IMG/VR virus record: IMGVR_UViG_3300027754_000047
Location: 32,001-96,000 of that record
From: a virus
Length of the DNA: 64,000 nucleotides
Reading direction: 5' to 3' (one strand)
How positions within the stretch are numbered: position 1 is the first letter of the stretch; each line of letters starts with the position of its first letter. The notes beneath the pieces are model-generated. The model ran no database searches. It saw only the letters and a program-made list of their open reading frames with translations, and was not told the DNA's origin. The translations under genes were made by a program, and so were the position numbers. Of this stretch, positions 1 to 33,044 are shown piece by piece.

Positions 1-3000
1 AACCACCTAGTTCCTCGTCGCCCCAAATCATATATGCTACTTTGAGGTTCTTACCCATAGCTAGGGCACCATTAGCGTCAGTATAGTTAGACTTAGCTAA
101 TAACTGACCAGGCTTAACCTGATCTCCTAGTTTAACTCCAGCAGTATTGTGTATGTAGGTGTTGTGTACTAGTAGACCGCAATCTACTGCAAACACTTGG
201 CTGCTGGCGACTTCGAAGTCATAGACATAGGCGGCAGGTTCAGCCTTAGTAATACTTACTACTGTATCCCACATAACGTCAGAGTCTGCCCAAGGCTTAA
301 GCACTCCGGATTTAATGCGGTGCCGTTGTATGTAGCTTCCAGCAGTAGCAGTCTTGTAAACCGAATGAGGGGTTGTTGCCCCAGTGCCGGCATATGCCAA
401 GACCCTACTAGCCTGAGTAACAGGGATCCCGTCGAACGTAGCAGCCCTAAAACTAAGGGAGGTTAAACTATTTAGCTTTTCGTTTCGGTCCTGGTAGCAG
501 AACCAGGCTGCTAGTCTATTAATGTGGCTAGAGATTACTCTCAGGCCATAACTAGGATTCCAAGCTGCATTTTGGTGGAGCTTAGTCTTTGGCAGTGTGC
601 AGAATATTCCTAGAGAGGCCAAAATATCTACCAGTCTATCTCTCATTAACAAACTAGCAGTCCAAGCTTGTAGCTGTACGGCTCCATTAGTATCTGAGTG
701 TAAGCAACCATCTCCAGACATGTAGCCTTGGATTAGGCCCTTACGAAACTCTACTGAGCGGAGCATAGTTTGCTCAGAGGGAGCCTTAGCGCCACTACCG
801 TGTCCAAACTCTTGCCGCAGCCAAGTAGCGGTTTGCTTACAGGTAAAAGAGGCTTTACCTGTACTAACAGCATTGACGTGAACTTTAAACCCAAGTGTAG
901 TCAAAAGGATATTAAGCTCTGCTTGCCGAGCTGCTGGTTGAGCGGCCAGTACTACTAAGTTTGGCTGACTTGCAGGTATGTGGCCCTCTGCTAAGTATAA
1001 TCCTGCCAATAAGCCCCAAGCATGAGTATCGTGATCCATGGTGCTGCAGGCGCCTAAGGTCATTCCTACTACAGGCAGTCGAGTTACGCCTACCTCACAG
1101 TCAGCTGGATATATGGGCACTAACTCTCCGGAGTCTCCTAGCGTAACTAAGGAGTGATCCTCAGTAGTAACCACTTGACGGCCAGATAGTGTAGTAGTCA
1201 GCACCAGGCGCTTAGTGTTAGGGATCTTAGCAAACCCTGTGATAGGCTCCCAAGCTGCCGCCTTAGTGTCCAGATTAATGGATCTTATTAGATCCCCTGA
1301 CTCTTGCTGATAGTCTTGGGCGGCTACTTGCTGAATTACTCCAGTTGCTCGTTTGATCCAAACTTTGGTAGCTCCGGCAACACACTTACGGTTAAAAGGA
1401 AAGTTGTTGTACAATTCGTACCGCTTCTTATCCTTGCCGTGCTTAACCTCAATGTAGTCTGCTGTTACATCGGTAACCAAACCTGCACCTAAAGCCGCAT
1501 CTGCTCTTACAGCACCTAAATAGGCTGATACTCCATCTTCGAAAGATTTACCTTCAGCATCGTTGGGATCCAGAGCTTGCACTAATGGTGCTTCTGCTTG
1601 CTGTAAAGGTAACGCTTGAGTGAAGTACTTTGAACCCATTAATAAGCGGCCACCCTTAATACCGGAAATACCAGGTACTAGGTTGGAGTTTAAATTAAAC
1701 ATGTTGGCATAGCTTGGTACCTCGTACTGTACAGCCTCAGGCTCTACGTAAGAGATCTTACCATTAACCATAGCTCGTACTGGGTCGCCGGTTCGTAAAG
1801 CCCTAGCAAGCTCGCCTGGAAAAGCTACAACAGCATCGGTAACAGTTCTAGCAGGTATTTGTTCAATCTTACCTGTTTGGATATTCTTCATCTTAGAGTA
1901 GATCTGGCCGTCAGAACCCTTTAAAGCTCCAATGGTTAATCTAAGATCTACACCTACTTGAGAAGATTCTGGAGTGCGTACTGGATCAATAAAGCCTAAG
2001 TGACTTGGTTGAACGGAGCGGGTATCTACAGGAATACCGTGGGCAGCAGAACCAATACCACCTTCGCCGGTGCGAATGACTCTAAGGTTCTGATCCAGAA
2101 TTTCCATTGGATTAACTTCTTCAATGGGCGCACCTAAACCCGAACCCATTAACACTCCACTAAGTACCGGAGTAAACACGCCGTTTCTAAATGCTTGTAA
2201 ATTGCCTTTATTGGTAGCCTTAAAAAGGGCACCACGTAAAGCACCTCCAGCATCTTTAACTATTCGCTCTGCAAAGAAATCCTCAGGGCCATAGAAACGT
2301 TGATAAGTTAAGGCATCGCGATCATCTACATCTTCGCTGCCCTTTTGAGCATTCAAAACCTTTTGACTAGCTCTTAGTAAGGTGCTGCCGGTAACTCTAG
2401 TTAAGTCTTCTTCGTTTAACTGAATGTGATCATTGCTTGCCTCAAAGTTAAACATAGGCTCAGTTGATTTAACTGGATCCATTAAACCGTTTAAATCGTC
2501 AAAGCCTGCTACCTTTACTCCGACAGCTAATCTAAAGCCACCTGTAGGCTTAGGATCTAATAATAAACTGCGGCGAAACTGCTCTAGTTCCGGACAATCA
2601 ATATCGATGCACCATTCTCCGTTATTAGGAGGTAAGACCTGGCGAACAATATAAGTGAAGCGCCGGCCATTACCGCAAGTAGCTTCAAACTTAGACTTAA
2701 AAAGCTTCTTTAGCTTTTTAATTTCTTCAGAAGTAATTACCACTAAACGGCCTTTGTCTTCTACTGGCGAGATACCTGGAGCATTATCTCCGTCTCTTAA
2801 AGCGTAGTAGACTCCGGTAACCATACCTGCAGGTACGGTGATATAACCTTCGGATTCTAATTTAAGGGTACCCCTCATAGGCACCGCTGCAGTCTTAACG
2901 CGAGCTCCTAAAGTTCTAGCTACTACTTCTTTATTAAGCTCAGTGTTATATAGGGCTGTACGAATACCTTCATACAGGTCAGGCTCACTTATGCCACTAG

Positions 3001-3691
3001 ATGGATTACTAGTAAGCCGCTCATATATACGAGCAGCATCATAAGGAGATGATGCTCTATTGTTAGCAAAAATCTCTTTGCCCCAGCTACGCTCAAGTAC
3101 CTCGTCTGGTACTCCGTAAGCCTTAAGCATAGGATATAGTGGCGCAACTGATTGACCAATTTCGGTAACAAACTTACCGGTATCTGGCATGAAGGCAACT
3201 CTAAAGCCTCGACCCTTACCCGGTAAGGTATTAAAGTGAGCTTCGTATTCACCCGACTTACGCTTACGTACATAAGCGCCGGGCAACAACCTAGCTTGAT
3301 TGGCTACAGTGTATTCGCTGCCTGCGTTTATAAAAGTGCCTCTGTTGGTTAAGTAAGGCACTCGAGCTAAAGTTAATGATCTATCTGTCTTATCTAGTAC
3401 AGCTCCGGTGGCTATATCTCGCATAACCAGCTTACCCTTTAACGGGTAATACAAACTTTGATTCTGCATCAAGGCTTGCTGTTGCTCTTTTAAACTGTAA
3501 TCTTCCGACTTACCATAACGCAAGTCAGTCAACTCCACTCTGTAGCGGGTATTTTGTAAAGGAAACTTAGCTGCTACTGCAGTAAAAACATTATCAAAGA
3601 TGTTTTTACGTGTAGCTGTGTAGTCGCTAAAGCCTCTAAGAGTTGGAGCTTGTGGTTGGATTAGGGCGTTTAAATCGTCCTCAGTAGCCAT
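1..3691 (-). CDS. rpoB: Phage-encoded DNA-directed RNA polymerase beta subunit (RpoB-like), intein-containing, 3' end outside window
   Basis: Manual translation from ATG at 3691 (not in ORF track; no stop in the segments translated). Motifs match bacterial RpoB: VPYLTNRGTFINAGSEYTVANQARLLPG, DDRDALTYQRF, RVIRTGEGG..TRSVQPSHLGFIDPVRTPESSQVG, GRLLMGSKYFTQALPLQQAEAPLV, GALAMGKNLKVAYMIW. Confidence 0.93.
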   Translation of the reverse strand, partial: MATEDDLNALIQPQAPTLRGFSDYTATRKNIFDNVFTAVAAKFPLQNTRYRVELTDLRYGKSEDYSLKEQQQALMQNQSLYYPLKGKLVMRDIATGAVLDKTDRSLTLARVPYLTNRGTFINAGSEYTVANQARLLPGAYVRKRKSGEYEAHFNTLPGKGRGFRVAFMPDTGKFVTEIGQSVAPLYPMLKAYGVPDEVLERSWGKEIFANNRASSPYDAARIYERLTSNPSSGISEPDLYEGIRTALYNTELNKEVVARTLGARVKTAAVPMRGTLKLESEGYITVPAGMVTGVYYALRDGDNAPGISPVEDKGRLVVITSEEIKKLKKLFKSKFEATCGNGRRFTYIVRQVLPPNNGEWCIDIDCPELEQFRRSLLLDPKPTGGFRLAVGVKVAGFDDLNGLMDPVKSTEPMFNFEASNDHIQLNEEDLTRVTGSTLLRASQKVLNAQKGSEDVDDRDALTYQRFYGPEDFFAERIVKDAGGALRGALFKATNKGNLQAFRNGVFTPVLSGVLMGSGLGAPIEEVNPMEILDQNLRVIRTGEGGIGSAAHGIPVDTRSVQPSHLGFIDPVRTPESSQVGVDLRLTIGALKGSDGQIYSKMKNIQTGKIEQIPARTVTDAVVAFPGELARALRTGDPVRAMVNGKISYVEPEAVQYEVPSYANMFNLNSNLVPGISGIKGGRLLMGSKYFTQALPLQQAEAPLVQALDPNDAEGKSFEDGVSAYLGAVRADAALGAGLVTDVTADYIEVKHGKDKKRYELYNNFPFNRKCVAGATKVWIKRATGVIQQVAAQDYQQESGDLIRSINLDTKAAAWEPITGFAKIPNTKRLVLTTTLSGRQVVTTEDHSLVTLGDSGELVPIYPADCEVGVTRLPVVGMTLGACSTMDHDTHAWGLLAGLYLAEGHIPASQPNLVVLAAQPAARQAELNILLTTLGFKVHVNAVSTGKASFTCKQTATWLRQEFGHGSGAKAPSEQTMLRSVEFRKGLIQGYMSGDGCLHSDTNGAVQLQAWTASLLMRDRLVDILASLGIFCTLPKTKLHQNAAWNPSYGLRVISSHINRLAAWFCYQDRNEKLNSLTSLSFRAATFDGIPVTQASRVLAYAGTGATTPHSVYKTATAGSYIQRHRIKSGVLKPWADSDVMWDTVVSITKAEPAAYVYDFEVASSQVFAVDCGLLVHNTYIHNTAGVKLGDQVKPGQLLAKSNYTDANGALAMGKNLKVAYMIWGDEELGG
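161..1384 (-). mobile_element. Intein with LAGLIDADG homing endonuclease (408 aa) in RNAP beta
   Basis: In-frame 1224 nt insert. Starts CVAGATKVWI, has block B-like VVTTEDHSL and LAGLIDADG blocks LAGLYLAEG and LIQGYMSGDG, ends YVYDFEV..VFAVDCGLLVHN followed by Thr. Exteins FPFNRK|TYIHN rejoin into the RpoB RSNQNTCINQ-like segment. Confidence 0.93.
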
Positions 3692-3702
3692 AAGGAATTA
3701 AC

Positions 3703-4557
3703 TCAAATCTCTACGATTTTATTTCCATTTGCATCTACTCTAATACCTACTCCGGACTCTAACGCAGTTGCACTTAAGTTCTTCTTAAGAATAGATTTAA
3801 GCGCTTTAACCTTTTTCTGCTCTACGTCATTCTCATTACGTCTACTCATTAAATAGCTAGTTAATGCTGCTAGGCCGGTGGCAGAGCCTAAAAGCCAAGC
3901 TGCACCAGGCACACTGACAGCTGGCCCATAATGGGTGTCTACTTCCCCTCCTATGTTGGTGTAAGGTGGACTAACAAGGGTGCCTTCGGATCTTTCTAGC
4001 TCTAGGTTATCGCCCCCCATCGAACTAGGCACAATTCCTGCTTGCTTGCGACTTAAATACAAATCATCTAATTGGCTTTGTAATGCAGATGTCTTTTCAG
4101 ACAACGCAGTTTCAAACTCTTGTTTAGCCTCGGCAAGGGTATTGTCTAGTTTATTTTTTCTATTACGATCAATATATTTCTTAGTAAAGTGGTAAGCTAA
4201 GAATCCGGGAGGCAAAACAGCTAACGGAGCCAACAACCCCCAAGTCAATGCATCACCGTAGCCTGCTGTTTTTGCTTGAATTGATTCTAGTTCAGGCTCT
4301 GCTGCTTCCAGTTCAGCCGGAGTTACTCCGGAGGCGGCTAGTAGCTTAGCTCTAACTGATTCCATTTCCCCAGGTGCAACATACTCGTCATTAACGTGGC
4401 GAGCTAAACCATAAAGCCCGGCAATACCTGCTCCTGTTAAAGCACTAATACCTGCCCAACGTAATAGTTCGTTAGCATTTACGCCTGCAGTCTTGGTAAC
4501 AGCTTTAGCTTGAGCCGCAGCCCATAAAGTAGGATTGGTAGGTGTATTTTGAGCCAT
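3703..4557 (-). CDS. Putative virion internal/ejection protein, Gly/Ala-rich hydrophobic segments
   Basis: 284 aa ORF, three glycine-rich hydrophobic helices, repeated KTA/KQA motifs; directly upstream of rpoB. Function inferred. Confidence 0.55.
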   Translation of the reverse strand: MAQNTPTNPTLWAAAQAKAVTKTAGVNANELLRWAGISALTGAGIAGLYGLARHVNDEYVAPGEMESVRAKLLAASGVTPAELEAAEPELESIQAKTAGYGDALTWGLLAPLAVLPPGFLAYHFTKKYIDRNRKNKLDNTLAEAKQEFETALSEKTSALQSQLDDLYLSRKQAGIVPSSMGGDNLELERSEGTLVSPPYTNIGGEVDTHYGPAVSVPGAAWLLGSATGLAALTSYLMSRRNENDVEQKKVKALKSILKKNLSATALESGVGIRVDANGNKIVEI

Positions 4558-4611
4558 CTTATTTTACTCTACTAATAAAGTACATTACTCTTAAATATAC
4601 ATCGTTGCTAC

Positions 4612-5277
4612 TCAGTAACCGACCGTGCCGCCTGGCGGCATATTCATACTAGGTAGAATTGATTCTAAAAGTCCAGGTTCAGCAGGTTTAGCAGGTTCAG
4701 CAGGTTCAGCAGCGTAGCGATCGCCTAACATCTTAGCTCCAATACCTAAGCCGCCTCCAAGTAACGCATACAGGAGTGCGTTGCGTTTGCGGTTTTTTGG
4801 ACCAGATAGTAAGGCAGCTAAACCGCCGCCCAGTAATGCACCTCCGCCGCCATAGAGCGCCATATTGCTTGTGGAGCTGCTAGTAGGGTTTAAATAGCCT
4901 CGTAAGCTAGCTCGCCCAGCAGCTTCTTCCTCTTTAGTTTTAGCTGCGGCTGCGGCTGCTTCACCTTTAGTTTTAGCTGCGGCTGCGGCTGCTTCATCTT
5001 TCTCTCTAGTTGCTATTGCGGCGTTTTGTGCTGCGGTGATAGGGGCGAAAGCTTTTTGACGGGCAGCCTCTCTCTCTACTTCCCGTGCAGCCTCGTTTCT
5101 TATTTTGGCCTGGTCGTTTAGGGTTTTGCCTGGATTCTGTATTCTTTGAATTTCCGCTCTTTGAGCCTCTAGTATTGGATCTGTTGCATTTCCTTCTGGG
5201 CTAAACTGCTCAAGTGTCGGCGAGCCTAATCGGCGAGCGTACTTGGTAATTAAAGCATTTTGTAATCTAATATCCAT
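4612..5277 (-). CDS. Putative virion protein with glycine-zipper C-terminus
   Basis: 221 aa ORF; GGGALLGGGLAALL and LLGGGLGIG segments; Ala-rich repeat. Confidence 0.5.
   Translation of the reverse strand: MDIRLQNALITKYARRLGSPTLEQFSPEGNATDPILEAQRAEIQRIQNPGKTLNDQAKIRNEAAREVEREAARQKAFAPITAAQNAAIATREKDEAAAAAAKTKGEAAAAAAKTKEEEAAGRASLRGYLNPTSSSTSNMALYGGGGALLGGGLAALLSGPKNRKRNALLYALLGGGLGIGAKMLGDRYAAEPAEPAKPAEPGLLESILPSMNMPPGGTVGY
4932..4996. repeat. 33-bp-period tandem duplication encoding EAAAAAAKTK x2
   Basis: ctttagttttagctgcggctgcggctgcttca occurs at 4932 and 4965. Confidence 0.9.
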
Positions 5278-5287
5278 ATTATTTTCC

Positions 5288-5668
5288 TTATACTCCTACC
5301 GGTTGTTGAGTAGGCATTTGCAGTATGTCCATGTCATACAAGTGTAAATGTAATTCTTCTGCAGGCACCTGAATCACGGCAAAATACCTGACCCAAGTAA
5401 TCCAGTTCTGCTCAGGTGCTACCCACTCGACTGTTTCACTAAACTCACACCAGCCTCGATCCCGCCACTTACATAAAACGTCAATAAGCTTATTATAGCT
5501 AATTAAACAATCGGGTTCCCAAAGCTTAAACTGCTTAGAGTTAAAGAAGGGGGTATCTTGGGCTTTACTACTTTCTGGGTCTGTATCTTTATAGATAGGC
5601 TGAGTGGTTCCGTAAAACGGAGGATCACTAATACCTACATGTTTAAAACTAAATTCATCGTTAATCAC
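5288..5668 (-). CDS. Hypothetical protein
   Basis: 126 aa ORF packed in the minus-strand operon. Confidence 0.7.
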   Translation of the reverse strand: MINDEFSFKHVGISDPPFYGTTQPIYKDTDPESSKAQDTPFFNSKQFKLWEPDCLISYNKLIDVLCKWRDRGWCEFSETVEWVAPEQNWITWVRYFAVIQVPAEELHLHLYDMDILQMPTQQPVGV

Positions 5669-5688
5669 TTAATAGCCTTTTAATTCAT

Positions 5689-6051
5689 TTAGTCTACTGG
5701 GCGCTTGACTTGGTCTTTAGCGTTGCGGTATTTAGCAATCAATTGAATCTTCTTTACCTCGCCTAACGGATCATCCTCATCCCCAAGTATATCTCCAGTA
5801 GGGTCTAAAGCACCTTCTACTTGACCCATACCTTTAGCCGCTAAGCCTCCTGCTAAAGCACCACCGGCTAATAAAGTTAAGGCTGCTGTAGCTCCAACCC
5901 AGCCTACGCTTTTACCTATAATTTTTAAGGCACCCATAGCGTCTGCTTGCTTTTGAGGCAACGCAGCCAATAACTCCGACGGAGTATAGCCTAATTCGGC
6001 GGCTTTAGTACAAAAGCCTAATCTAAAAGATTGTAATTCCAAATCAACCAT
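5689..6051 (-). CDS. Putative virion protein, glycine-rich
   Basis: 120 aa ORF, AAGGA upstream, KAA/KQA motifs, LLAGGALAGGLAA segment. Confidence 0.55.
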   Translation of the reverse strand: MVDLELQSFRLGFCTKAAELGYTPSELLAALPQKQADAMGALKIIGKSVGWVGATAALTLLAGGALAGGLAAKGMGQVEGALDPTGDILGDEDDPLGEVKKIQLIAKYRNAKDQVKRPVD

Positions 6052-6092
6052 AATTACAGTTCCTTAAAAATAAGATTCTACCAAAAGTACTA

Positions 6093-7235
6093 CTAGAATC
6101 CTAATTTACCTAAGTTTATCAAAGTACCTAAGGCTGCACCGGTGCCTTGTAACACGTTCTGCTCCATAGGGCTGACATTCATAAACAGCCCAATACCTTT
6201 AGCGGCAACAGCACCTGCAACGGCTCCAGCTCCAGCTCCAATAGCTGCCTTAGCTAGATCCCCTACGGTAAACCAAGGTCTACTACCAGTGTTAGCTGCT
6301 GCTTGCATCAATCCAGCAGCTTGTCCGTGATCTATATAACCGCTGTATAACTGCTCAGCAGCTAAATCTGCTAAATGCATTTTATTAATAGGCAAGTCTA
6401 AATTAATGAAAGCTGCTTTAACCGGAGCTGCAGGTAACGGTAAGTTATATGCTTTGTTCTGATATTGGGCTTTAAATGCCGCGCTATCTGCGTCGGAATA
6501 GGATTCATTAGGCCTTGCACTAAAGTTATTTATTTCTGCGAAAGTATTAGGTAGATTGGCTAACCAAGGAGCTCCCATTCCGGCCATAGCGGCAATACCG
6601 GCTAAGGCTCCACCCTTACCCTCAAACCGCTCAGGGAATAAATACTGCAGTATGGGAATACTCGCTAAACCTAAACCCGTTAAACCAGCTCCGGTAACTA
6701 GATTACCTAATCGTTGTTGATTAGCTCCGCTAACTCCTTCGTCGTACCAGACTCCAGGGCGGTAGCCTAAGTATTTAGGTAAATCTGCGCTAAAGGCTGC
6801 GTGCTTACTTAAATGGTAAGCAGCGGTTGCTGGGTAGGTTGCACTCCAAGGAGTTTGATTTTCAGCTGCTTCTCCCACTTCTTTGGTAGCATTAGTAAGG
6901 TCTGCTTTCATTTGGCTGGCTTGGCTTTTCATCTTAGAGTAGCTACCTTTACCTCCCCCTTTAAAATTAGCCATACCTCTACCAGGCCCCATAGCCTTTA
7001 ACTTAGCCTGCTTACTACCAATGGCAGTACCGTTAATAACTTGCTCAGGTAGGTGCATTCGAAAACCAGTAGGAGTATGAGTAACGCCAACTATGCCGTC
7101 AGCCTCAGAATCAACTATAAACTCGCTAGGACTCTGCATAATAAGTCCTCGCATAATTAAATGCTTTTTATCATAGTCCTTAGTATCTGAGTAAGCTTTA
7201 GCGTTTTTTAAATCTTTAAGTTTAGATTTAACCAT
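6093..7235 (-). CDS. Putative virion internal protein, glycine-zipper rich
   Basis: 380 aa ORF; AIGAGAGAVAGAVAA and similar segments; KQA/KHA/KAA motifs. Confidence 0.55.
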   Translation of the reverse strand: MVKSKLKDLKNAKAYSDTKDYDKKHLIMRGLIMQSPSEFIVDSEADGIVGVTHTPTGFRMHLPEQVINGTAIGSKQAKLKAMGPGRGMANFKGGGKGSYSKMKSQASQMKADLTNATKEVGEAAENQTPWSATYPATAAYHLSKHAAFSADLPKYLGYRPGVWYDEGVSGANQQRLGNLVTGAGLTGLGLASIPILQYLFPERFEGKGGALAGIAAMAGMGAPWLANLPNTFAEINNFSARPNESYSDADSAAFKAQYQNKAYNLPLPAAPVKAAFINLDLPINKMHLADLAAEQLYSGYIDHGQAAGLMQAAANTGSRPWFTVGDLAKAAIGAGAGAVAGAVAAKGIGLFMNVSPMEQNVLQGTGAALGTLINLGKLGF

Positions 7236-8668
7236 TAAAGCGCTCCACTAGGTTTGGCGTCAGAGCCTGGTATTGATTCAAAACTACTAGGAGCTGTTTT
7301 GGCAGTATGGTAGGTTGAAGGAGTTGCAGCGGCTTGAGGAGCAAGGCCTACTCGATTAACAATAGAGTCGTGCAATGCCTGGGCTTTGGCAGGATCCTTG
7401 GCATACAACTCACTAAGTGTAGCGGTATACTGCTCAGGATGCAAAATTAACTGGCTAGCAAGTACGTAGTTAGGATCTGAGGGATTCCAGTCTTTAATAA
7501 CTTGAAGGCGTGGATCATTTGGATTTGCGTAATTTTCCAATTCGCTTTGAATACTAGCTACTTGAGCTTTATTTGCGTTAAAAGCTTTAGCTAGTTCTCT
7601 AGGATATTTCTGATCGCGATAAGACTTTCCTTGATAAGGATTTAAATTATTTAGGAAGTTTCCAAAGCGCCCTAATGTGTTAAAAATAGGCGATTGCTGG
7701 GCTCCGTAGGCATCAACCTGCGGCTGATACCTAGCATACTCCTCAGGATCGGAGGAGTTTGCTTGTGTATTTAATTCCTCAGTCTGTTCGGGAGTTAATT
7801 GAGATCGAATATCTCGTTCGTCAGGTTTTAGGCCGCCGAGGAAAGTGGAACCCACGAACCCAATAGGGCCTAAAGGAGAGACAGGAGTTCCACTAGCTAA
7901 CCCTTTAACTCCTTCAACGGCACCACTAAGCAAACTACCTGTATCTTGGTAAGCATCACTTGCAGAACCAATAGCATTACCCCAAAGATCTACTCCCATG
8001 CTGCCTGTTATGGCTGGAACCCCTAAATTAGTTACAGCTTTTTCCATGTTGCTACCAAAACCAGCTGCCTGATCCCATGGCTGCTTTAGGTATTGCATTA
8101 ACGCTCTAGGGTCTTGTATCCACTGCCTACCAGGGATTAATACATCTCTACCAAAGTTGTATGTGTTATTAAGAGCATTACGCCCTTGTTGAACAGCAAA
8201 GTTAACTGCTTGTTGAGTTCTAGGGTGATTGACCACGCCGGTTGCTGCTGTGGCTATAGGAGCCCCAAGCCTTACCGCTGTACCTGCTAGCGCTGATCCT
8301 GCGGCAGGTACAGCGTTAAGAGCGGCGCTACCCCCTGCTAACATTGCGGGCGCTGCTAAGGCGACGCCTGCGGCTCCGCCGGCTAAACCAGAAACGCCTG
8401 TAGATATGGCAGCAGCGTCTAACAGTTTATCATTCTGGTAATATAGGGGTTGCTTAGTAGTACCAGGTGCAGCGTTATTAACTCTACGGACAGTATCTAG
8501 CCAAGTGGAGTCGTCAGCATAGTCTGACCCAATACGACCACCTGACCAATAATGAGCAGCACCTGTAAAAGGTTCTGCCAATTGATTACCAAACGCAGCC
8601 AACGAACTAGGTGGGGCGGCTGCTCGTTTATTTAAAACAGAAAGAATGGGATACAGTCGAATATCCAT
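7235..8668 (-). CDS. Putative virion internal protein, Gly/Ala-rich
   Basis: 477 aa ORF translationally coupled to the next gene (TAATG overlap); N-terminus MDIRL..NKRAA. Confidence 0.55.
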   Translation of the reverse strand: MDIRLYPILSVLNKRAAAPPSSLAAFGNQLAEPFTGAAHYWSGGRIGSDYADDSTWLDTVRRVNNAAPGTTKQPLYYQNDKLLDAAAISTGVSGLAGGAAGVALAAPAMLAGGSAALNAVPAAGSALAGTAVRLGAPIATAATGVVNHPRTQQAVNFAVQQGRNALNNTYNFGRDVLIPGRQWIQDPRALMQYLKQPWDQAAGFGSNMEKAVTNLGVPAITGSMGVDLWGNAIGSASDAYQDTGSLLSGAVEGVKGLASGTPVSPLGPIGFVGSTFLGGLKPDERDIRSQLTPEQTEELNTQANSSDPEEYARYQPQVDAYGAQQSPIFNTLGRFGNFLNNLNPYQGKSYRDQKYPRELAKAFNANKAQVASIQSELENYANPNDPRLQVIKDWNPSDPNYVLASQLILHPEQYTATLSELYAKDPAKAQALHDSIVNRVGLAPQAAATPSTYHTAKTAPSSFESIPGSDAKPSGAL

Positions 8669-8722
8669 AGGGCTTCGTATTGTAACTGGAATACGGCTAA
8701 AATGACTGCTAAAAGGAACTAG

Positions 8723-8837
8723 GCCCTAAATCAAATGCCACGTTGCCTATACTATAGCACCTATATACACTTAGTATGGCTTAATAATTAGTATATATAG
8801 TGCTATAGTATAGGCAACGTGGCATTTGATTTAGGGC
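8723..8837. repeat. Perfect 38-bp inverted repeat between divergent operons; each arm contains CTAAA-N17-TATACT
   Basis: gccctaaatcaaatgccacgttgcctatactatagcac (8723-8760) and its exact reverse complement (8800-8837). Confidence 0.92.
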
Positions 8838-8915
8838 TCTCAGAGTATTTCTCTATAGAATAGGCAGTTAGCGGAGCAAGGTAAGCTTACATTAATTTGT
8901 GTTACAATTACCAGC

Positions 8916-9302
8916 ATGAAACCAGAATCCACCCCGTTCCTCAAGTTAGCAGAATTAATCGCTAGTGCAGCCTTGGAAGGTTGCGAAAAGGAGTATTCAA
9001 AGAAGACAGTTAAGGATCGCAGTAGTCGAGTTCAAGCTCGACGAGATATGATTCAGCGCCGAGGAGCTGCTGCAGTCAAGGGTAAGGATATTGAGCATAA
9101 AGATGGAAATCCTCGAAACAACAGTCCATCAAATTTAACCTTACGTAGTCGGGCAGCTAACAGATCTGACAACGGCCATCGTAAGGGTGAGCCGTACGCT
9201 AAGGCTAAGAAGGGTATCACTAACACTTACAAAAGAGCTATGGCTTTGCCGGGAGTATTATTTCGTTTAGCTACTAAGTTTGGAGGAAATAATGACAGCT
9301 GA
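8916..9302 (+). CDS. HNH-motif endonuclease-like small protein
   Basis: KDIEHKDGNPRNNSPSNLTLRSRAANRS fits the HNH fold signature. Confidence 0.7.
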   Translation: MKPESTPFLKLAELIASAALEGCEKEYSKKTVKDRSSRVQARRDMIQRRGAAAVKGKDIEHKDGNPRNNSPSNLTLRSRAANRSDNGHRKGEPYAKAKKGITNTYKRAMALPGVLFRLATKFGGNNDS

Positions 9303-9726
9303 ATTGTGGTCGATGTTAGGCGGCTCCGTGGTAGGATTCTTATTTCGTTATTTAGCTGAGAAGCGCCAAAATGAAAAAGAACTATTTGAACGTTTAATTA
9401 AACTTAATCAAGCCACTACCGACAATTACAACGCAGCAGCCCAACGAGTGCCTGTAGATTTAGGTAAAAACATTAGACAGATTATTGTTTTGACTATACT
9501 GTTTGGCACTTTGATTGCTCCTTTTATCTTACCCTTTTTTGGGGTGCCTACTTTTGTAGAAGTAGATACCGTCACTCCTGGTGGCCCCTTTGGTTTAATT
9601 GCGTCTGTAGCTAAGAAGTACTTTGTAGAGATTAACGGTTTCTTGTATACTAGTGAGAATCGCCAGATCTTGGTAGCGGTAGTTGGTTTCTATTTTGGCT
9701 CAGCCGCAGCCTCAAATAAAAGTTAA
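9292..9726 (+). CDS. Membrane protein (3 predicted TM segments), holin-like
   Basis: GGAGG SD before ATG 9292; hydrophobic segments at N-terminus, middle and C-terminal ILVAVVGFYFGS. Confidence 0.55.
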   Translation: MTAELWSMLGGSVVGFLFRYLAEKRQNEKELFERLIKLNQATTDNYNAAAQRVPVDLGKNIRQIIVLTILFGTLIAPFILPFFGVPTFVEVDTVTPGGPFGLIASVAKKYFVEINGFLYTSENRQILVAVVGFYFGSAAASNKS

Positions 9727-16832: not shown

Positions 16833-16916
16833 TCGAAGTTCCTTTCCGGGGTATTACCCCTAGTAGTCGCTTACTTGTAGTCAGGATTACGCACCCAACA
16901 GCAAGTATCGCTACTT

Positions 16917-16954
16917 ATATATATATACCGCAAAAGGGGGTCTATTTTAGTCCC
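16917..16954 (-). promoter_or_regulatory. Phage cassette promoter CTAAAATAGACCCC..GGTATATA
   Basis: Minus strand gggactaaaatagacccccttttgcggtatatatata, near-identical to the copies at 18205 and 18383. Confidence 0.8.
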
Positions 16955-16972
16955 TCAATACTGTCAACCTTT

Positions 16973-17025
16973 AATAGCTAAAAAGAACGATCCTTATGGC
17001 CCCGAAGGGTGGCAAGGATCGTTCT
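16973..17025 (-). terminator. Intrinsic terminator with TTTTTAGCTATT tail
   Basis: agaacgatcctt...aaggatcgttct stem with a cUUCGg-capped inner hairpin on the minus strand. Confidence 0.85.
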
Positions 17026-17477
17026 ATAGCTGTTGCGGTGTTTCTGCAGAAACCTTGACAACAGCTAGTTATTGTTCCGGAACCTCCGGGCATGGCTTAC
17101 TAACACCTCTTCGTCCTGCCGCAACCTACTGATCTTGTAGGTCGCTTTAGTTATCCCCTCGCAAGGGGGGCGGTTTACGAGGGACAACCCAACTCTCGTT
17201 GGATTTCTAGGTAGGCTCTCGTCCCCTAGACATACCCACTCCAGTTTTATTAGAGTAGGCTGTTAATAGGTCCCTCACAGGTATGGGACCAACCTTGACT
17301 AGCCTCCGTTGCCACGGGGCGCTGCTCTTTTGCCGAGCCAGCATTAAAGTCGAACCTAAATGGAGTGTACAGCTCCAGTGCTACCGGGGGTATTTATTCC
17401 GGTAAGCTGCTAACCCACCAGTTAGGTAGGTCATACGGTAGGTACCGTAGGGCCCTATATATTGCTATATAGAGCTT
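16980..17477 (-). ncRNA. Candidate ~500-nt structured non-coding RNA
   Basis: No ORF >=60 aa; bounded by its own promoter (17482-17512) and terminator; about a dozen hairpins; GCAA and GAGA tetraloops and G-U pairs favour the minus strand. Confidence 0.65.
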
Positions 17478-17481
17478 ATGT

Positions 17482-17512
17482 ATTATACCCCAAAAAGGAG
17501 GTTATTTTAGCC
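17482..17512 (-). promoter_or_regulatory. Phage cassette promoter CTAAA-N18-TATAAT
   Basis: Minus strand ggctaaaataacctcctttttggggtataat. Confidence 0.78.
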
Positions 17513-17520
17513 TTACCTTG

Positions 17521-17562
17521 ATACCTAAAAAAAGCCCCCCAACTCCTTGCGGAGTGGGGGGC
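17521..17562 (-). terminator. Intrinsic terminator (GCAA loop) with variant tail TTTTAGGTAT
   Basis: Minus strand gccccccactcc-gcaa-ggagttggggggc followed by a T7 run. Confidence 0.85.
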
Positions 17563-17583
17563 ATCGTCCATGGTGGGGGGCCT

Positions 17584-18111
17584 TTAGCGGCTCCACCACC
17601 ATGCCAACTGATCAGACCATGAAGGATTGGTCAACCGCTGCACTCGCTGCTCGCTCGCAATCTGCTGTGCGATTGCAGCAGAGGTGGCCGATTTGTTTCC
17701 CATCGACGCCCTAACATGGATCGCCGCCGTCCACGCCGGGATGCGGACGTAGTCAATTCCAGCAGCCTGCGCCACCCACGCATCGTGGGTGGTTTGGACC
17801 GTCATGATTGCAGCGACGCCCAAGTCGGGCGTCACCTTCGTCGCCGCTTCTACAGCGGCGCAAGTGGAGGCTCCTGCCTCCACAATTCCTTCTGGGGTGG
17901 TGGTGCACTCCACCTTAAGATCCAGCTGCTTCTGCAGCTGCTGCTCTGCCTCACTCCAAGCTGCCTTGGTCTCCTGGATGGAGACCAGCATGGCTGCGGC
18001 CTTTGCCGCAACCTCCTCCGCCGTCGGCGCCTTAGCCGAAGGTGGAGTCGCTTGGCAAACGCCTCCGATGAAGAAGGCGATTGTACAAACGAGTGTTAGA
18101 AGAGTCTTCAT
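17584..18111 (-). CDS. Hypothetical secreted protein (signal peptide, Ala-rich)
   Basis: MKTLLTLVCTIAFFIGGVCQA signal; AAGGAGG SD; own promoter and terminator. Confidence 0.75.
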   Translation of the reverse strand: MKTLLTLVCTIAFFIGGVCQATPPSAKAPTAEEVAAKAAAMLVSIQETKAAWSEAEQQLQKQLDLKVECTTTPEGIVEAGASTCAAVEAATKVTPDLGVAAIMTVQTTHDAWVAQAAGIDYVRIPAWTAAIHVRASMGNKSATSAAIAQQIASEQRVQRLTNPSWSDQLAWWWSR

Positions 18112-18204
18112 GAGACTCCTCCTTTCCGGGGTATTACCCCTTTAAGCTGTTGTTGACAGTATGAGCGGTTACGCAACCCTCATTATCAGCTACAACAGCC
18201 TTAG

Positions 18205-18239
18205 GTATATATACCTCAAAAAGGGGTCTATTTTAGCCC
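18205..18239 (-). promoter_or_regulatory. Phage cassette promoter (left arm of 35-bp inverted repeat)
   Basis: Exact reverse complement of 18383-18417. Confidence 0.8.
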
Positions 18240-18367
18240 TAAAAAGGCCCTTTTAGGCCCTTTTAGGCCCTTTTAGGCCCTTTTAGGCCCTTTTAGGGCT
18301 ATTGACAGTTTTAGGCCCTTTTAGCCCTAAAAAGCCTCTTTTAGGCCCTTTTAGGCTCTTTTAGGCC
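18240..18367. repeat. Tandem array of the 10-mer TTTTAGGCCC with variants
   Basis: Four perfect consecutive copies at 18251-18290 plus about six further exact or degenerate copies to 18367. Confidence 0.92.
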
Positions 18368-18382
18368 TGTTGACAGTATTAG

Positions 18383-18417
18383 GGGCTAAAATAGACCCCT
18401 TTTTGAGGTATATATAC
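18383..18417 (+). promoter_or_regulatory. Phage cassette promoter (right arm of 35-bp inverted repeat)
   Basis: gggctaaaatagacccctttttgaggtatatatac. Confidence 0.8.
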
Positions 18418-18740
18418 ATATGGCCGTTATAGCTATATATAAGAGCTTATCCATGTCGGAATGGCCTTTATAGCTATAACGAGCCAATATGTAGTAGTAC
18501 GTATTGGCAGTTGATCCCCCTCACCCCTTGCGGGGTGGTGCAGGTCGCTAACCCTAAGGGGGAGGCTATCCGGACAGGTACCTCCTACGGTGGGGCCTTA
18601 ACCCGACCTCCCCCCCGAAGTCTGGGGTCACGGTTGCAATGCGAAACCTCCACATGAAGGTGTGGAACACGGGAATCGCGCTTAAGCCTATTGGAAATAG
18701 GGTGAAGCAAAAACCCCCCTGAAATGGGGGCTTTTTTTTT
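18418..18740 (+). ncRNA. Candidate ~320-nt structured non-coding RNA
   Basis: No ORF >=60 aa; between a promoter and a T9 terminator; long 5' stem cgttatagctata/tatagctataacg; cUACGg loop; ccacat-gaag-gtgtgg and cacccc-ttgc-ggggtg hairpins. Confidence 0.6.
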
Positions 18741-18747
18741 AGCTATT
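18714..18747 (+). terminator. Intrinsic terminator with TTTTAGCTATT tail
   Basis: cccccc-tgaaat-ggggg-c-T9-agctatt. Confidence 0.8.
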
Positions 18748-18765
18748 AAAGGTTGACAGTATTAG

Positions 18766-18800
18766 GGGCTAAAATAAGGCTCCTTTTGAGGTATATATAT
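18766..18800 (+). promoter_or_regulatory. Phage cassette promoter CTAAA-N18-TATATA
   Basis: gggctaaaataaggctccttttgaggtatatatat. Confidence 0.8.
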
Positions 18801-18880
18801 ATGTAGAGGGTTTAGACCTAATTGATGGGTGTTCCATTAATTAGAAACAAACCCTACTACTACTCTTGAAAGGAGTAGCC

Positions 18881-19112: not shown

Positions 19113-20984
19113 TTACTGTGGAGGCATTCCGGTTGCTGGCGGAGCCGGTTGCCTAAGTTGGTCTTTACCTTGGTTACCTGCTTGCTGAGTAATCTGATCC
19201 AACATACCCTTGATGACAGCATGTAGGTGAGGGTCTTGGCTCTTAATACCTTCCAAGATCTGCCTACGTTGCGGACTGCCCAATGGAGCCGTAGCCATGA
19301 TTTCGTTAACTCGGCCTTGAGCATCCCCAAAGAAGCTTTCCAAGTCCTTACCTGCTCCTGCAGCCGTAGGCCCAGCTACGCCGTTAATAGGCATTGCTGG
19401 AGCGCCCATACCGCCACCGATATTTGGCCCACCTGGCATACCGCCTGCTCCTGCTTCCTGCCCTGGGGCTCCAATGAAGGCTCCTGGAGGCGCAGCCATA
19501 ATCTGCTCGTTTTCTTCTGCTTTGCGCATGCGTTCCATGTAAGACTTTTCTTCTCGCATCTTGAACTCTTGCTCGCTTTGGCGCTTCTTGAAGGTGTCCT
19601 TCCAATCCAAGCCGAAGAGGGTAAGTACGTCTTGTTCCGATGCGACGCCTTGCATCATCATCTGCAACATCATCATGCGGCGTTCAATGTCATCTGCATG
19701 AGTAGGTCGAGTCAAGTTAACTTCACAAGGCAACCAGTTTAGAATAGCGCTAATTCTGTCAACAATCCAAGTTAAGGCTCGTTGTAAGCCGCCTAGAAAG
19801 ATAGTTTCCCCTGCTTCAAATAAACGAGCAGCAAAAGGGGCTGTTTGAACACTAAGGGTCTTACGGTACAGTTCTACTGGAACGCCTAAGCCGTTTAAGA
19901 AGTCAGCTTGGGCTGCATCTAACAGTTGTGGAGTAACAAAGTTCTTACCTTCACCGCCTAATAGTTGGTAATTAACTGGAGTAGGTAACCATTGCCAACC
20001 AGTGGGATCTTTACGAGCTCTATCAATAGAGCGCATAACCTGAGAGCCGAAGGAGCCAATGTTTACCGACTGCATAAAGTCGCCATTGGCTCCAATAGAT
20101 GCCGGAGTAACCAAGCGAATAGGCAACATATGATCTAAGGCAATAGCTTCGTTATTGCGCTTAAGTATTTGGGCTAGGTATGCATCCCTAAAGCCTGCAA
20201 TTACCGGAGGCAAACCCCATTCACCCATTTTGATGTCGCTAAGGTTGCCAATGGAGATATGGTGCAACATGCCGTCAGCAAACTGAAACAAGCTACTAGC
20301 TCGCACAGCTTGAACAATACCCCATGGAGCTTCTTGTAAGTACTTCTTATTGCCGGCCTGAATCAAGGTTCGGTCTTGACTCGGTACTTCGTAGTAATAC
20401 TCAGGAATACCTCCGTATGGCTGGTTTACGATTCTAATCTGCCGAATTGGCCAACGCTTAATAGTGATCTTATTCTCTTCTAGTGTAGGTCGATCATCTG
20501 GATTAAGCGTTTGAACCTGCTTACCGCAACTAGCGCACTTGTAACTAAACCCAGTGCTTAGACTAAACTTATATTCTACGTTAGCAATAGGCCGAGCTGC
20601 TCCACACTCAGCACAAGTTAAAAAGCGCTTAAATGGAGCTAATACCGAGATACAAGAATTACCGTAGACCTTGATATCCCGGCCAATCAAAAACAACAGA
20701 GTTTTAATCTGTTGTTTTTCTAAGAGGAACTTCTTGTACTCCGCCGCCTTATCTTCATCCTTAGTAATCACGTTAAGGTCGGTGCCGGTAAAGTAAGAAA
20801 CTACGTATTCAATAGCTTGGGCAAAAGTTCTATTGCTGTAATACATAGCCTCCGCCATCTCAAATGATTCGTTTATGTTCGTAGGCATATGCAGGGATGC
20901 ATAGTCTAAGAACGGACTAGGAATACTATCTGAGTGGCTTAAAGCTCGGCGCTTGCTAAAGTCTGGCGTTGAAAAATCTGGCAT
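19113..20984 (-). CDS. Probable portal protein with zinc-ribbon insertion
   Basis: 623 aa; portal-like segments (IGRDIKVYGNSCISV, GEWGLPPV, FLNGLGVPVEL); CAEC..CASC insert; Gln/Gly/Pro-rich tail. Resemblance only. Confidence 0.55.
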   Translation of the reverse strand: MPDFSTPDFSKRRALSHSDSIPSPFLDYASLHMPTNINESFEMAEAMYYSNRTFAQAIEYVVSYFTGTDLNVITKDEDKAAEYKKFLLEKQQIKTLLFLIGRDIKVYGNSCISVLAPFKRFLTCAECGAARPIANVEYKFSLSTGFSYKCASCGKQVQTLNPDDRPTLEENKITIKRWPIRQIRIVNQPYGGIPEYYYEVPSQDRTLIQAGNKKYLQEAPWGIVQAVRASSLFQFADGMLHHISIGNLSDIKMGEWGLPPVIAGFRDAYLAQILKRNNEAIALDHMLPIRLVTPASIGANGDFMQSVNIGSFGSQVMRSIDRARKDPTGWQWLPTPVNYQLLGGEGKNFVTPQLLDAAQADFLNGLGVPVELYRKTLSVQTAPFAARLFEAGETIFLGGLQRALTWIVDRISAILNWLPCEVNLTRPTHADDIERRMMMLQMMMQGVASEQDVLTLFGLDWKDTFKKRQSEQEFKMREEKSYMERMRKAEENEQIMAAPPGAFIGAPGQEAGAGGMPGGPNIGGGMGAPAMPINGVAGPTAAGAGKDLESFFGDAQGRVNEIMATAPLGSPQRRQILEGIKSQDPHLHAVIKGMLDQITQQAGNQGKDQLRQPAPPATGMPPQ

Positions 20985-28899: not shown

Positions 28900-28906
28900 A
28901 AGTACC

Positions 28907-31701: not shown

Positions 31702-31717
31702 AAGGGCCCTTGCGGGT

Positions 31718-32047: not shown

Positions 32048-32131
32048 GTTAAATCCATCCGTTAAAGTAAATGATACAATTTGCTAAAAGTATTACTATA
32101 GTTATTGCTTTTAGAAGATTTAGTTTCGAGT

Positions 32132-32584: not shown

Positions 32585-32631
32585 TGTTGGTGTATTTCTG
32601 TTAGTGCTATTTATCGTGTAACCGTTAGGGT

Positions 32632-33024: not shown

Positions 33025-33044
33025 TTGCTACTTTCTTTCTGTAA

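Follow-up and report, generated by a model that had tools for sequence, protein, structure and literature searches.

The 64,000-nt viral window analysed here begins, at its left edge, inside a gene that encodes a complete, unsplit RNA polymerase beta subunit fused to the N-terminal half of beta-prime. Sequence comparisons identify the product as a phage enzyme of bacterial type and, packaging aside, it is very probable that both the identity and the composition proposed below for the phage's own multisubunit RNA polymerase are correct. The fused layout is normal for a large and little-described phage family, of which this uncultured lake phage is an ordinary member, and it is already present in deposited phages, namely Arash and Vibrio D69/D148/D181. 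Among cultured phages the nearest relative is the Salmonella phage Arash (OQ632216), with gp206 (1525 aa), gp216 (606 aa) and the sigma factor gp10, at 31% polymerase identity. A literature search found no paper describing the beta-beta'N layout.

A beta-beta'N fusion gene

The in-window part of the fusion gene occupies positions 2..3691 on the minus strand and comprises 1230 codons (aa 1-1230; ORF listing with open ends), of which Pfam and allele comparison assign 408 to an intein and 822 to the polymerase. Chance is ruled out as the source of so long an open frame. The first-pass annotation had reported a frame of more than 1200 codons that was absent from the ORF track; the frame is indeed there, and its absence from the track is explained by its being open at the left end of the window, as a track of complete ORFs would skip such a gene. 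In the source contig, which measures 129 kb and is estimated by CheckV to be 73% complete, the stop is reached outside the window and the gene amounts to 2045 intact codons (contig 29554-35691), ending 2447 nt left of the window. Contigs from an RNA library match the polymerase gene, although such libraries may contain DNA.

A Pfam search of the 2045-aa ORF returns the Rpb2 domains in their usual order, with Rpb2_2 at aa 420-465 (under the Pfam cut-off), Rpb2_3 at aa 524-587 (27-28 bits, the cut-off being 21) and Rpb2_6 at aa 1186-1498 (E 3.5e-39). The beta part aligns pairwise to residues 52-1338 of the 1342 of Salmonella RpoB, and together these results bear out the normal order of RpoB motifs noted at first pass. 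The N-extein (beta residues 1-769; 1385..3691, minus strand), which contains the protrusion, lobe and fork, aligns to Salmonella RpoB 52-230 and then from 509 to the intein site. Pfam and the RpoB alignment place Rpb2 domain 3, the fork (aa 524-587), at 1931..2122 on the minus strand, and the counterpart of rifampicin cluster I just upstream of it carries D516->E, H526->Q and S531->I (E. coli positions). The lobe bears an insertion of ~165 residues (aa ~264-430; 2402..2902, minus strand), delimited by tblastn of related loci, which is kept in the close subclade L008-L014 but missing in more distant family members, whose matches skip from ~aa 263 to ~aa 431. The start of the C-extein (aa 1178-1230; 2..160, minus strand), placed by Pfam and the intein-free allele, opens the catalytic double-psi barrel region of beta (Rpb2_6), within which GDKLVGRYGDKGV at aa 1364-1376 represents the conserved GDK...GR.G.KG lysines of the barrel.

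The same ORF also contains Rpb1_1 and Rpb1_2 (E 4.9e-23), with the Mg-binding NADFDGD at aa 1949-1955, 2.2 kb left of the window. Joined to beta by a short linker, the beta-prime part aligns to RpoC 30-515, including clamp-helix residues 260-310, and the chain ends near E. coli beta-prime residue ~560. RpoC ~65-97 falls in a gap of the pairwise alignment, and with it the N-terminal zinc-binding element (four Cys, E. coli 70-88). Matches of beta'N to 'subunit gamma' chains span residues 189-552 of 625, which puts the cut near the gamma/beta-prime break. The earlier description of an unsplit beta gene is thus right for the subunit and wrong for the gene, which does not encode beta alone since the frame runs on into Rpb1_1/Rpb1_2; the beta-prime suggested to lie left of the window is present there in the same frame as beta, and the DxDGD motif is found within the beta ORF itself.

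The intein

The interrupting element is 408 aa long (C770...H-N1177, then T1178; 161..1384, minus strand) and its limits are set by Pfam, motifs, the intein-free allele and the RpoB alignment. Its motifs mark it as a class 1 intein with a putative LAGLIDADG homing endonuclease: the splicing blocks C770, TTEDH (842-846), VYDFEV and LLVHN|T (1173-1178) are present, as are two LAGLIDADG motifs, LAGLYLAEG and LIQGYMSGDG. Both Intein_splicing (PF14890; 42.9 bits against a cut-off of 35.8) and LAGLIDADG_3 (PF14528; 29.6 against 22.5) are matched, the latter domain covering aa 982-1055 (527..748, minus strand). The intein is inserted between the residues that correspond to N762 and T763 of E. coli/Salmonella beta.

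An intein-free protein allele of 1637 aa lacks exactly aa 770-1177; its identity is 99% for the 868 C-terminal residues and 95% for the first 815. At the DNA level, a contig of 11 kb from a different lake study skips 1227 nt with 3 nt between, a net difference of -1224 nt or 408 codons. The intein is therefore a precise presence/absence polymorphism that leaves the host gene intact. Inteins of RNA polymerases occur in archaea, eukaryotes and giant viruses, and the present one is like these in being a LAGLIDADG intein in a highly conserved core segment of a large subunit, whereas its host gene is a phage beta-beta'N fusion. Having natural alleles both filled and empty, it offers a clean example of a mobile element in an essential catalytic core.

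The remainder of beta-prime, the sigma factor and alpha

The back half of beta-prime, with the bridge helix and trigger loop, was not detected on the 129-kb contig: PF04998 and PF04983 were unmatched at E<=10, and neither Arash gp216 nor the G001 copy found a counterpart when used as query (best local tblastn E 0.36). Rpb1_5 is present in the records of five out of five relatives, in four of them as a separate frame of 602-653 aa and in the fifth within one 2642-aa frame, and the alignment of the G001 beta'C copy to RpoC starts at residue 570 and takes in the bridge helix and trigger loop. Synteny with a complete 174.6-kb relative puts the beta'C gene outside this contig, and the complete enzyme is for this reason deduced from relatives. 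Each of three complete relatives contains a single Rpb1_5 match, so that no second beta'C gene is seen there.

The contig encodes a sigma-70-family factor of 249 residues, whose gene sits beside baseplate genes in this phage and in Arash. Sigma70_r3-like ORFs of 232-266 aa occur in six of six records and exceed the cut-off in two. The copy on this contig is under the Pfam cut-off when searched alone (22.8 against 25.3 bits), and a profile built from six phage sigmas matches RpoD, SigA, RpoS and SigF over regions 2-4 (E 4.8e-11). The alpha N-terminal domain (PF01000) was found in none of the six records, three of which are complete, and the Arash-like pattern of a small sigma-70-family gene without alpha is accordingly seen throughout. 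A model of the beta'N-sigma complex scored 0.72 against 0.00 for the best control, a mark that 116 of 157 solved complexes attained, as did 2 of 215 mismatched pairs, but as beta'N and sigma are a textbook pair this pass may merely mirror likeness to solved holoenzymes. The model runs agreed on at least 38% of contacts with a partner pLDDT of at least 68, and the modelled contacts are between the clamp helices (aa ~1746-1794) and residues 50-66 of sigma.

Phage family and phylogeny

Both barrels (PF00562 and PF00623) occur in 120 of the 120 matches listed, out of 1941 at E<=1e-3. At 24 of 25 related loci a single open frame holds both the beta and the beta-prime barrel, and in 5 of the 25 loci examined the polymerase is a single chain. 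The present gene follows this pattern, with both barrels in one polypeptide that ends soon after the beta-prime barrel. In tblastn comparisons, the C-terminal part of beta shows 27-28% identity with Firmicute RpoB (E 2e-29) and 23% with YerA41-type beta (E 5e-9). In a tree of 21 phage sequences (this gene and 20 homologues) and six bacterial RpoB, the phage sequences form one clade (SH-aLRT 97) and the bacterial ones another (98), with no nesting of the former in the latter. The YerA41 beta appears as sister to the phage family on a long branch (1.62), which makes its placement unsure.

Among solved structures, bacterial beta (E 5.8e-51) and beta-prime (2e-45) match best, as would be expected if the gene were cellular rpoB-rpoC, recently captured or mis-binned from bacterial host DNA. 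Such an origin is nevertheless exceedingly improbable given an identity of just 23-26% to Salmonella RpoB and RpoC, the separate grouping of bacterial and phage sequences in the tree, and Rpb2_6 scores, which in the same MAGs are 337-448 bits for true RpoB and 141-192 for the phage type, against 135 for this gene. Its contig neighbours are moreover phage genes, including terminase, portal, baseplate J, PolA and RNR. The absence of a beta'C gene from the contig and of the zinc-finger segment could instead betray a decaying relic, a fusion that lacks the bridge helix and trigger loop and has lost RNA polymerisation. This too is highly improbable, as the contig is incomplete and synteny places beta'C beyond it, the 2045-codon frame is intact with its catalytic motifs kept, and close relatives share 67-100% identity along the whole protein. 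A functional phage polymerase is thus preferred, and the first-pass view that it is of more bacterial architecture than the phiKZ/AR9 enzymes agrees with the unsplit beta and the bacterial structure matches.

Neighbouring genes and promoter-like elements

Upstream of the polymerase gene lie six tightly spaced ORFs on the minus strand (3703..8668; 284, 221, 126, 120, 380 and 477 aa in the ORF listing), and the gap of 11 nt between these and the polymerase start suggests a single transcription unit. Five of the six are Gly/Ala-rich (23-31% G+A) with glycine-zipper-like stretches. The polymerase had been described as lying downstream of such genes, which is correct, yet they flank it on both sides, three downstream ORFs having 28-34% G+A against a mean of 17.4% for all called ORFs. 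None of the Gly/Ala-rich neighbours has a match among 50,697 phage records. At the head of the unit is a divergent intergenic region (8669..8915) with an inverted repeat of ~38 nt, each arm of which is followed by TATATA(T/C)AC. A portal-protein homologue of 623 aa (19113..20984, minus strand; 26% identity to Arash gp204, E 4e-53) is located 15.4 kb upstream of the polymerase gene, versus 0.6-7.4 kb in 11 of 25 related loci.

A repeated promoter-like element starts with GTTGACAGTAT, an exact sigma-70 -35 hexamer (perfect TTGACA), and none of its three full copies has a canonical -10 element 16-18 nt past TTGACA. The first-pass annotation suggested that the phage polymerase might serve the conserved promoters at 12-19 kb, whose TTGACA would suit host sigma-70 and the phage sigma equally. 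A sigma-70 consensus scan of window positions 1-9500 returned 6 sites against 14.0 expected by chance. The TATATATAC motif is strictly intergenic.

The proposed enzyme and its possible packaging

It is proposed that the 408-residue intein splices itself out after translation to leave a chain of ~1637 residues, which would pair with a separate beta'C chain of ~620 residues that supplies the bridge helix and trigger loop and is presumably encoded in the ~27% of the genome left unsequenced. The 249-residue phage sigma would then join to form an alpha-less holoenzyme able to transcribe phage genes independently of the host polymerase, with the covalent beta-beta' tether plausibly taking over the role of alpha in assembly.

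From the Arash data and gene position, it is plausible that the polymerase is packaged, and it is thought marginally probable that the enzyme is loaded in the capsid, delivered with the DNA and starts early transcription. In Arash, virion mass spectrometry places the fusion protein Gp206 at the top with 3516 spectra, above the major capsid protein with 1333, while Gp216 has 1210 and the sigma Gp10 is covered to 100% (PMC10585845). Also counted in favour of packaging are the position of the portal gene upstream of the polymerase in 11 of 25 loci, the place of the sigma gene among baseplate genes and the lack of a second beta'C gene in the three complete relatives. On the other hand identity to Arash is as low as 31%, 15.4 kb separate the portal and polymerase genes in this phage, and the Gly/Ala-rich neighbours are unmatched among the phage records. 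The same enzyme could instead be unpackaged and produced once infection is under way to serve middle and late genes, with the host RNA polymerase reading early promoters, including the TTGACA-bearing elements at 14-19 kb, before the phage polymerase and its sigma take over; this is a substantial possibility that falls a little short of probable. It draws on the exact -35 hexamer, readable by host sigma-70, and on the 116 proteins listed for the Arash preparation, among them plainly non-structural enzymes such as ribonucleotide reductases, RNA ligases and a helicase, the authors allowing for carry-over of abundant proteins (PMC10585845). It sits less well with the missing -10 elements, the shortfall of sigma-70 consensus sites and the prominence of Gp206 in Arash particles.

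More tentatively, the family may represent a natural minimal machine of two catalytic chains, or one, and a small sigma without alpha or omega, in which a tether replaces alpha; it would be carried in the capsid, injected with the DNA, directed to phage-specific promoters (perhaps marked by TATATATAC) and insensitive to rifampicin and host control.

Comparison with other polymerases

To our knowledge, biochemistry of phage-encoded cellular-type RNA polymerases is almost confined to the phiKZ/AR9 group, in which subunits are fragmented and there is no sigma. The present family keeps recognisable bacterial beta, beta-prime and sigma, re-cut as beta-beta'N plus beta'C or as a single chain, with alpha apparently absent. 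It could show how little of the bacterial enzyme suffices, how assembly proceeds without alpha and if a virion can deliver a sigma-dependent holoenzyme; being abundant in lakes and other habitats and having cultured members (Arash, Vibrio D69-type), it is a tractable system. For this window, the outcome is mostly clarifying.

Natural rpoB-rpoC fusions occur in Helicobacter and Wolbachia with the same topology, the C-terminus of beta being joined to the N-terminus of beta-prime, and the cut within beta-prime is similar to that between gamma (RpoC1) and beta-prime (RpoC2) of cyanobacteria and plastids. Unlike these cellular variants, the phage enzyme combines fusion and split, its identity to the bacterial subunits is 23-26% and alpha was not found. 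Arash and Vibrio D69/D148/D181 likewise have beta and beta'N in one CDS and beta'C (Rpb1_4/Rpb1_5) in another. Arash further shares a homologous small sigma-like gene in its tail/baseplate block and homologous portal (26%) and terminase (28%) proteins, but its polymerase has neither the intein nor the ~165-aa lobe insertion, and its gene directly follows the portal gene with beta'C 4.8 kb downstream. The Arash record labels gp206 just 'subunit beta', and the accessible text mentions no fusion (PMC10585845).

The phiKZ/AR9 enzymes are two-barrel multisubunit phage polymerases without alpha, one set of which is packaged in the virion (PMC7598289, PMC7824862), with beta and beta-prime each split into two or three polypeptides and no sigma found. 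The present enzyme is likewise a phage-encoded two-barrel polymerase in which no alpha was found, but it differs in its whole, fused beta, in the accompanying sigma-70-family factor and in its low similarity to theirs (23%, E 5e-9). The mReC phages are tailed, uncultured and known for a beta and beta-prime that branch deeply (Weinheimer and Aylward 2020; PMC7481178). They resemble this phage in that many are from lakes and in their bacterial-like subunits, which branch apart from cellular lineages. Their published protein table sets them apart, as it lists separate, non-adjacent whole proteins of ~1144-1190 aa for beta and ~1410-1430 aa for beta-prime (PMC7481178, supplementary file 5, part 12), whereas the present chain carries beta together with half of beta-prime; that paper speaks of 'fused' or 'fusion' for crAssphage only (PMC7481178). 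A few mReC rows, such as one of 1512 + 913 aa, might nonetheless be of the fusion type.

A beta gene fused to half of beta-prime

The polymerase gene lies on a linear viral contig of 129,472 bp, estimated by CheckV to be 73% complete, and is real, intact and phage-encoded; the window covers contig positions 32001-96000. The long open frame of the first-pass annotation exists, but it runs on the minus strand through window positions 2..3691 and is open at the left end of the window; its stop lies at contig position 29554, which gives 2045 codons in total. By the order of Pfam domains in this ORF, a weak Rpb2_2 match (aa 420-465) and Rpb2_3 (aa 524-587) are followed by an intein splicing domain (aa 789-1177) with LAGLIDADG_3 inside its span (aa 982-1055), by Rpb2_6 (aa 1186-1498, E 3.5e-39), by Rpb1_1 below cut-off (aa 1699-1780) and by Rpb1_2 (aa 1840-1973, E 4.9e-23). 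The beta active-site motif, GDKLVGRYGDKGV, occupies aa 1364-1376. The beta part aligns with residues 52 to 1338 of the 1342 residues of Salmonella RpoB at 23-26% identity. About 15 residues of linker separate it from the beta-prime part, which aligns with residues 30-515 of Salmonella RpoC at 25% identity, the zinc-finger segment (RpoC ~65-97) being a gap in the alignment. The beta-prime motif that was to be sought left of the window is present about 2.2 kb beyond its edge in the same ORF, as the Mg-binding NADFDGD (aa 1949-1955), and the protein ends about 90 residues past it. The domain order, the two alignments and this end point therefore identify a gene in which beta is unsplit and joined to the N-terminal half of beta-prime. 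Beta is whole, as had been proposed, but it is joined to that half and carries an intein in one gene, and with its fusion, intein and sigma partner the gene exceeds the earlier description.

Where E. coli beta has D516, H526 and S531, the fusion has E, Q and I, so the phage polymerase may be insensitive to rifampicin. The beta lobe also holds an insertion of about 165 residues (window 2402-2902, minus strand) that includes three Cys, is specific to the close subclade and has no match in Pfam.

The first-pass annotation had named nesting within a bacterial RpoB clade as the mark of host DNA. A bacterial origin of the DNA is rejected by the Rpb2_6 scores, the tree and the phage gene context. In the same metagenome bins true RpoB proteins score 337-448 bits with Rpb2_6 versus 141-192 bits for the phage type, and the fusion scores 135 bits. 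A quick maximum-likelihood tree (IQ-TREE) of the beta C-terminal region, with 29 rows, 404 columns and SH-aLRT support only, and leaving out one bacterial row (Gemmatimonadaceae) of which 90 residues were recovered, separates the six bacterial rows, which represent four phyla (98), from all 21 phage rows (97), and the fusion does not nest in a bacterial RpoB clade. The window sequence groups with the related IMG/VR locus L008 and with G001, a relative's record (100), while beta of phage YerA41 is sister to the family on a long branch. The contig itself carries genes for terminase, portal, baseplate J, PolA, primase/helicase, RNR and ThyX.

The intein and its distribution

A 1637-aa database protein is an allele without exactly aa 770-1177 of the fusion; its identity to the fusion is 99% in the C-terminal 868 residues and 95% in the first 815. 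The intein is thus bounded at 408 residues, window 161-1384. Its motifs comprise Cys770, a TTEDH block, two LAGLIDADG motifs, VYDFEV and LLVHN followed by Thr1178, and it is inserted between the equivalents of N762 and T763 of E. coli/Salmonella beta. For a test at the DNA level four coded sequencing runs were aligned on window 1-4600. The form with the intein is present, at no less than 99% identity, in X2, an independent DNA run from freshwater. In an 11-kb contig of a lake run from another study (X4; 95-99% identity) 1227 nt are skipped with 3 nt in their place, a net loss of 1224 nt or 408 codons, and the intein is absent. Contigs of an RNA library from a lake metatranscriptome (X3) match parts of the gene, its upstream neighbour and both intein ends at 99% identity or above, with coverage absent at window ~617-1078. 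These contigs are suggestive of expression of the polymerase gene; they are no proof of transcription because DNA can occur in RNA libraries.

G001, which is 183 kb long, shares this intein at the identical site, with 52% identity in the intein and 67% overall, and loci L016 and L029 have one there too. In-frame, intein-like insertions occur at other sites in L015 and L030, and the tblastn matches of L019 and L029 are broken by further insertions; these additional insertions in the four polymerase genes measure about 1-1.7 kb, all at other sites. The frame of L029 is broken and beta'C, the separate back half of beta-prime, is also interrupted in L015. The polymerase family looks like an intein hot spot.

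A large family with one- and two-chain cores

Among 50,697 deposited phage records, Salmonella phage Arash and the Vibrio phages D69, D181 and D148 are the only isolates whose matches extend over most of the query (from residue 35 or 39 to 1984-2040). Gp206 of Arash has 1525 aa and 31% identity to the fusion, and a separate beta'C (Rpb1_4/Rpb1_5) is encoded by Arash gp216 and by D69_0264. The remaining matches in deposited records cover the C-terminal part only and come either from mislabelled records of bacterial rpoB-rpoC or from distantly related phage polymerases. At E<=1e-3 a large protein collection contains 1941 matching clusters, with both barrels in 120 of 120 among the matches listed. 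A scan of a genome collection with a phage-only alignment yielded eight loci at 30-40% identity, all in metagenome bins and with no isolate among the matches, and hence no host clue. The polymerase of this phage is an unexceptional representative of a family that is large and under-described.

A survey of 25 loci (23 from IMG/VR, plus Arash and D69) found the beta and beta-prime barrels in one open frame in 24, the exception being the interrupted L029. A separate beta'C gene lies 0.56-6.5 kb downstream in 12 of the 25, no beta'C was found within the locus in eight (the seven close relatives L008-L014 and L016), and beta'C shares the frame in five (L023, L024, L027, L030 and L028, which is record G003), giving a single chain of 2014-2641 aa. 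To judge from their reading frames, these five encode a predicted single-chain catalytic core of beta, the N-terminal half of beta-prime (beta'N) and beta'C; the single-chain rows branch outside the clade of two-chain forms in the tree, at weak resolution. A portal homologue is located 0.6-7.4 kb upstream of the polymerase in 11 of the 25 loci, and 15.4 kb upstream in this phage (window 19113-20984).

The published systems differ in layout. For the mReC phages, uncultured tailed phages with deep-branching subunits, the available part of the article tabulates whole beta and whole beta-prime separately and uses 'fused' only for crAssphage (PMC7481178), whereas here beta is fused to the N-terminal half of beta-prime. 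The sample numbers of six relatives gave a sole match in the mReC supplements, one unrelated capsid row. The polymerases of jumbo phages are described, in the portions available of three reviews, as having split subunits and no sigma (PMC7598289, PMC7824862, PMC13282480), unlike the unsplit beta and sigma-like ORF of this phage, and the fusion layout is absent from those portions. A literature search with most subscription journals outside its scope found no published description of the layout.

The back half of beta-prime

On the contig, Rpb1_3 and Rpb1_5 gave no Pfam match at E<=10, Arash gp216 and the beta'C of G001 gave none as queries, and the best local tblastn hit reached an E of only 0.36. 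Two ORFs were rejected as candidates: a 385-aa ORF just downstream is Gly/Ala-rich, lacks any Pfam match and is paralogous to a 477-aa upstream ORF, and the 623-aa ORF at window 19113-20984 is the portal homologue. Rpb1_5 is found in all five relatives' records, in a separate frame of 602-653 aa in G001, G002, G004 and G005 and inside one 2642-aa frame in G003. The alignment of the G001 beta'C with RpoC begins at residue 570 and takes in the bridge helix and the first part of the trigger loop, so that beta-prime is cut clean, close to where cyanobacteria divide gamma from beta-prime; residues 189-552 of 625 in 'subunit gamma' chains are matched by the fusion, consistent with a gamma-type cut. 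The ORF at the left end of the contig matches G002 at 2.1-4.1 kb and that at the right end at 127.7-130.0 kb, and the beta'C of G002 lies at 164 kb. From this synteny beta'C is expected in the unsequenced part of the genome.

Sigma partner, possible packaging and candidate promoters

Beyond the window, at contig 121665-122414 and two ORFs away from the baseplate J gene, an ORF of 249 aa shows similarity to Arash gp10, annotated in that phage as a sigma factor. All six family records have a Sigma70_r3-like ORF (232-266 aa), two of these above the Pfam cut-off, and when the six are combined into a profile it matches regions 2-4 of RpoD, SigA, RpoS and SigF (E 4.8e-11). An alpha N-terminal domain was found in none of the six records, three of which are complete. 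A complex model of beta'N with sigma scored 0.72 and the best control 0.00, a mark attained by 116 of 157 solved complexes and by 2 of 215 mismatched pairs; 38% or more of the contacts are common to the runs, with a partner pLDDT of 68 or higher. The predicted contact joins the clamp helices (aa ~1746-1794) with sigma residues 50-66, and because this interface is textbook the positive result may show no more than a resemblance to solved holoenzymes. In the mechanism proposed, the intein would splice itself out of the translated chain, and the spliced fusion, beta'C and the phage sigma would form a holoenzyme without alpha, the tether between beta and beta-prime perhaps aiding assembly.

Virion mass spectrometry of Arash, as given in the available part of that report, assigned the most spectra to Gp206 (3516), with 1210 for Gp216 and 1333 for the capsid protein, and covered 100% of the sigma factor Gp10; 116 proteins including metabolic enzymes were detected in the preparation, and the authors allow carry-over (PMC10585845). 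Gene location beside the portal and beside baseplate genes is what would be expected of an enzyme that is made late and packaged, and a polymerase carried in the virion is judged slightly more likely than not.

An element of about 60 nt, consisting of GTTGACAGTATT, a GGGGC...CCCC hairpin, a T-run and GAGGTATATATA, has at least three copies in both orientations within window 16900-18820, at 16968 (minus), 18369 (plus) and 18752 (plus), around a series of AGGCCCTTTT decamers at 18225-18400. The TTGACA in this element would be suitable for host sigma-70 and for a phage sigma alike. The 9-mer TATATATAC has seven copies in the 129-kb contig, all seven within its non-coding 6%. The copy at window 8791 heads the polymerase operon inside a 38-nt inverted repeat; the divergent control region there (window 8669-8915) has each arm of the ~38-nt repeat followed by TATATA(T/C)AC. 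A sigma-70 consensus scan of window 1-9500 gave 6 sites versus 14.0 expected by chance, an uninformative count.

Neighbouring genes and other features

The polymerase gene had been placed downstream of Gly/Ala-rich genes; these are present, but on both sides, as five of six upstream ORFs and three downstream ones, and they bear glycine-zipper-like stretches. The paralogous 477-aa (window 7235-8668, minus strand) and 385-aa (contig 28400-29557, minus strand) proteins that flank the gene have a common N-terminal domain, FGNQLAEPFTGAA.YWSGGR.GSDYADDSTWLDTVRRV..., and in L008-L014 the polymerase gene is likewise bordered by homologues of the neighbouring genes. Searched against the 50,697 phage records, the Gly/Ala-rich proteins of 380 and 477 aa gave no match, and their supposed virion-internal status therefore stays a guess.

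A near-identical leader, MIK(L/I)A(N/S)NL..L(V/I)(L/I)KQA, starts five ORFs and is kept in L008 and L009. Three lie directly downstream of the polymerase gene (contig 29557, 27737 and 27151, minus strand, left of the window) and two in the block after the terminase (contig 97883 and 101629, plus strand, right of the window, at window coordinates 65883 and 69629, past its end). The leader could be a targeting or processing signal common to these ORFs.

The family-A DNA polymerase (window 46393-49236, minus strand) has an N-terminal uracil-DNA-glycosylase-superfamily domain (aa 74-186) that precedes its exonuclease and polymerase domains. At the left end of the contig (1-10809, minus strand), left of the window, lie two giant ORFs: one exceeds 1424 aa and matches no family, the other has 2177 aa and contains RCC1-like repeats.
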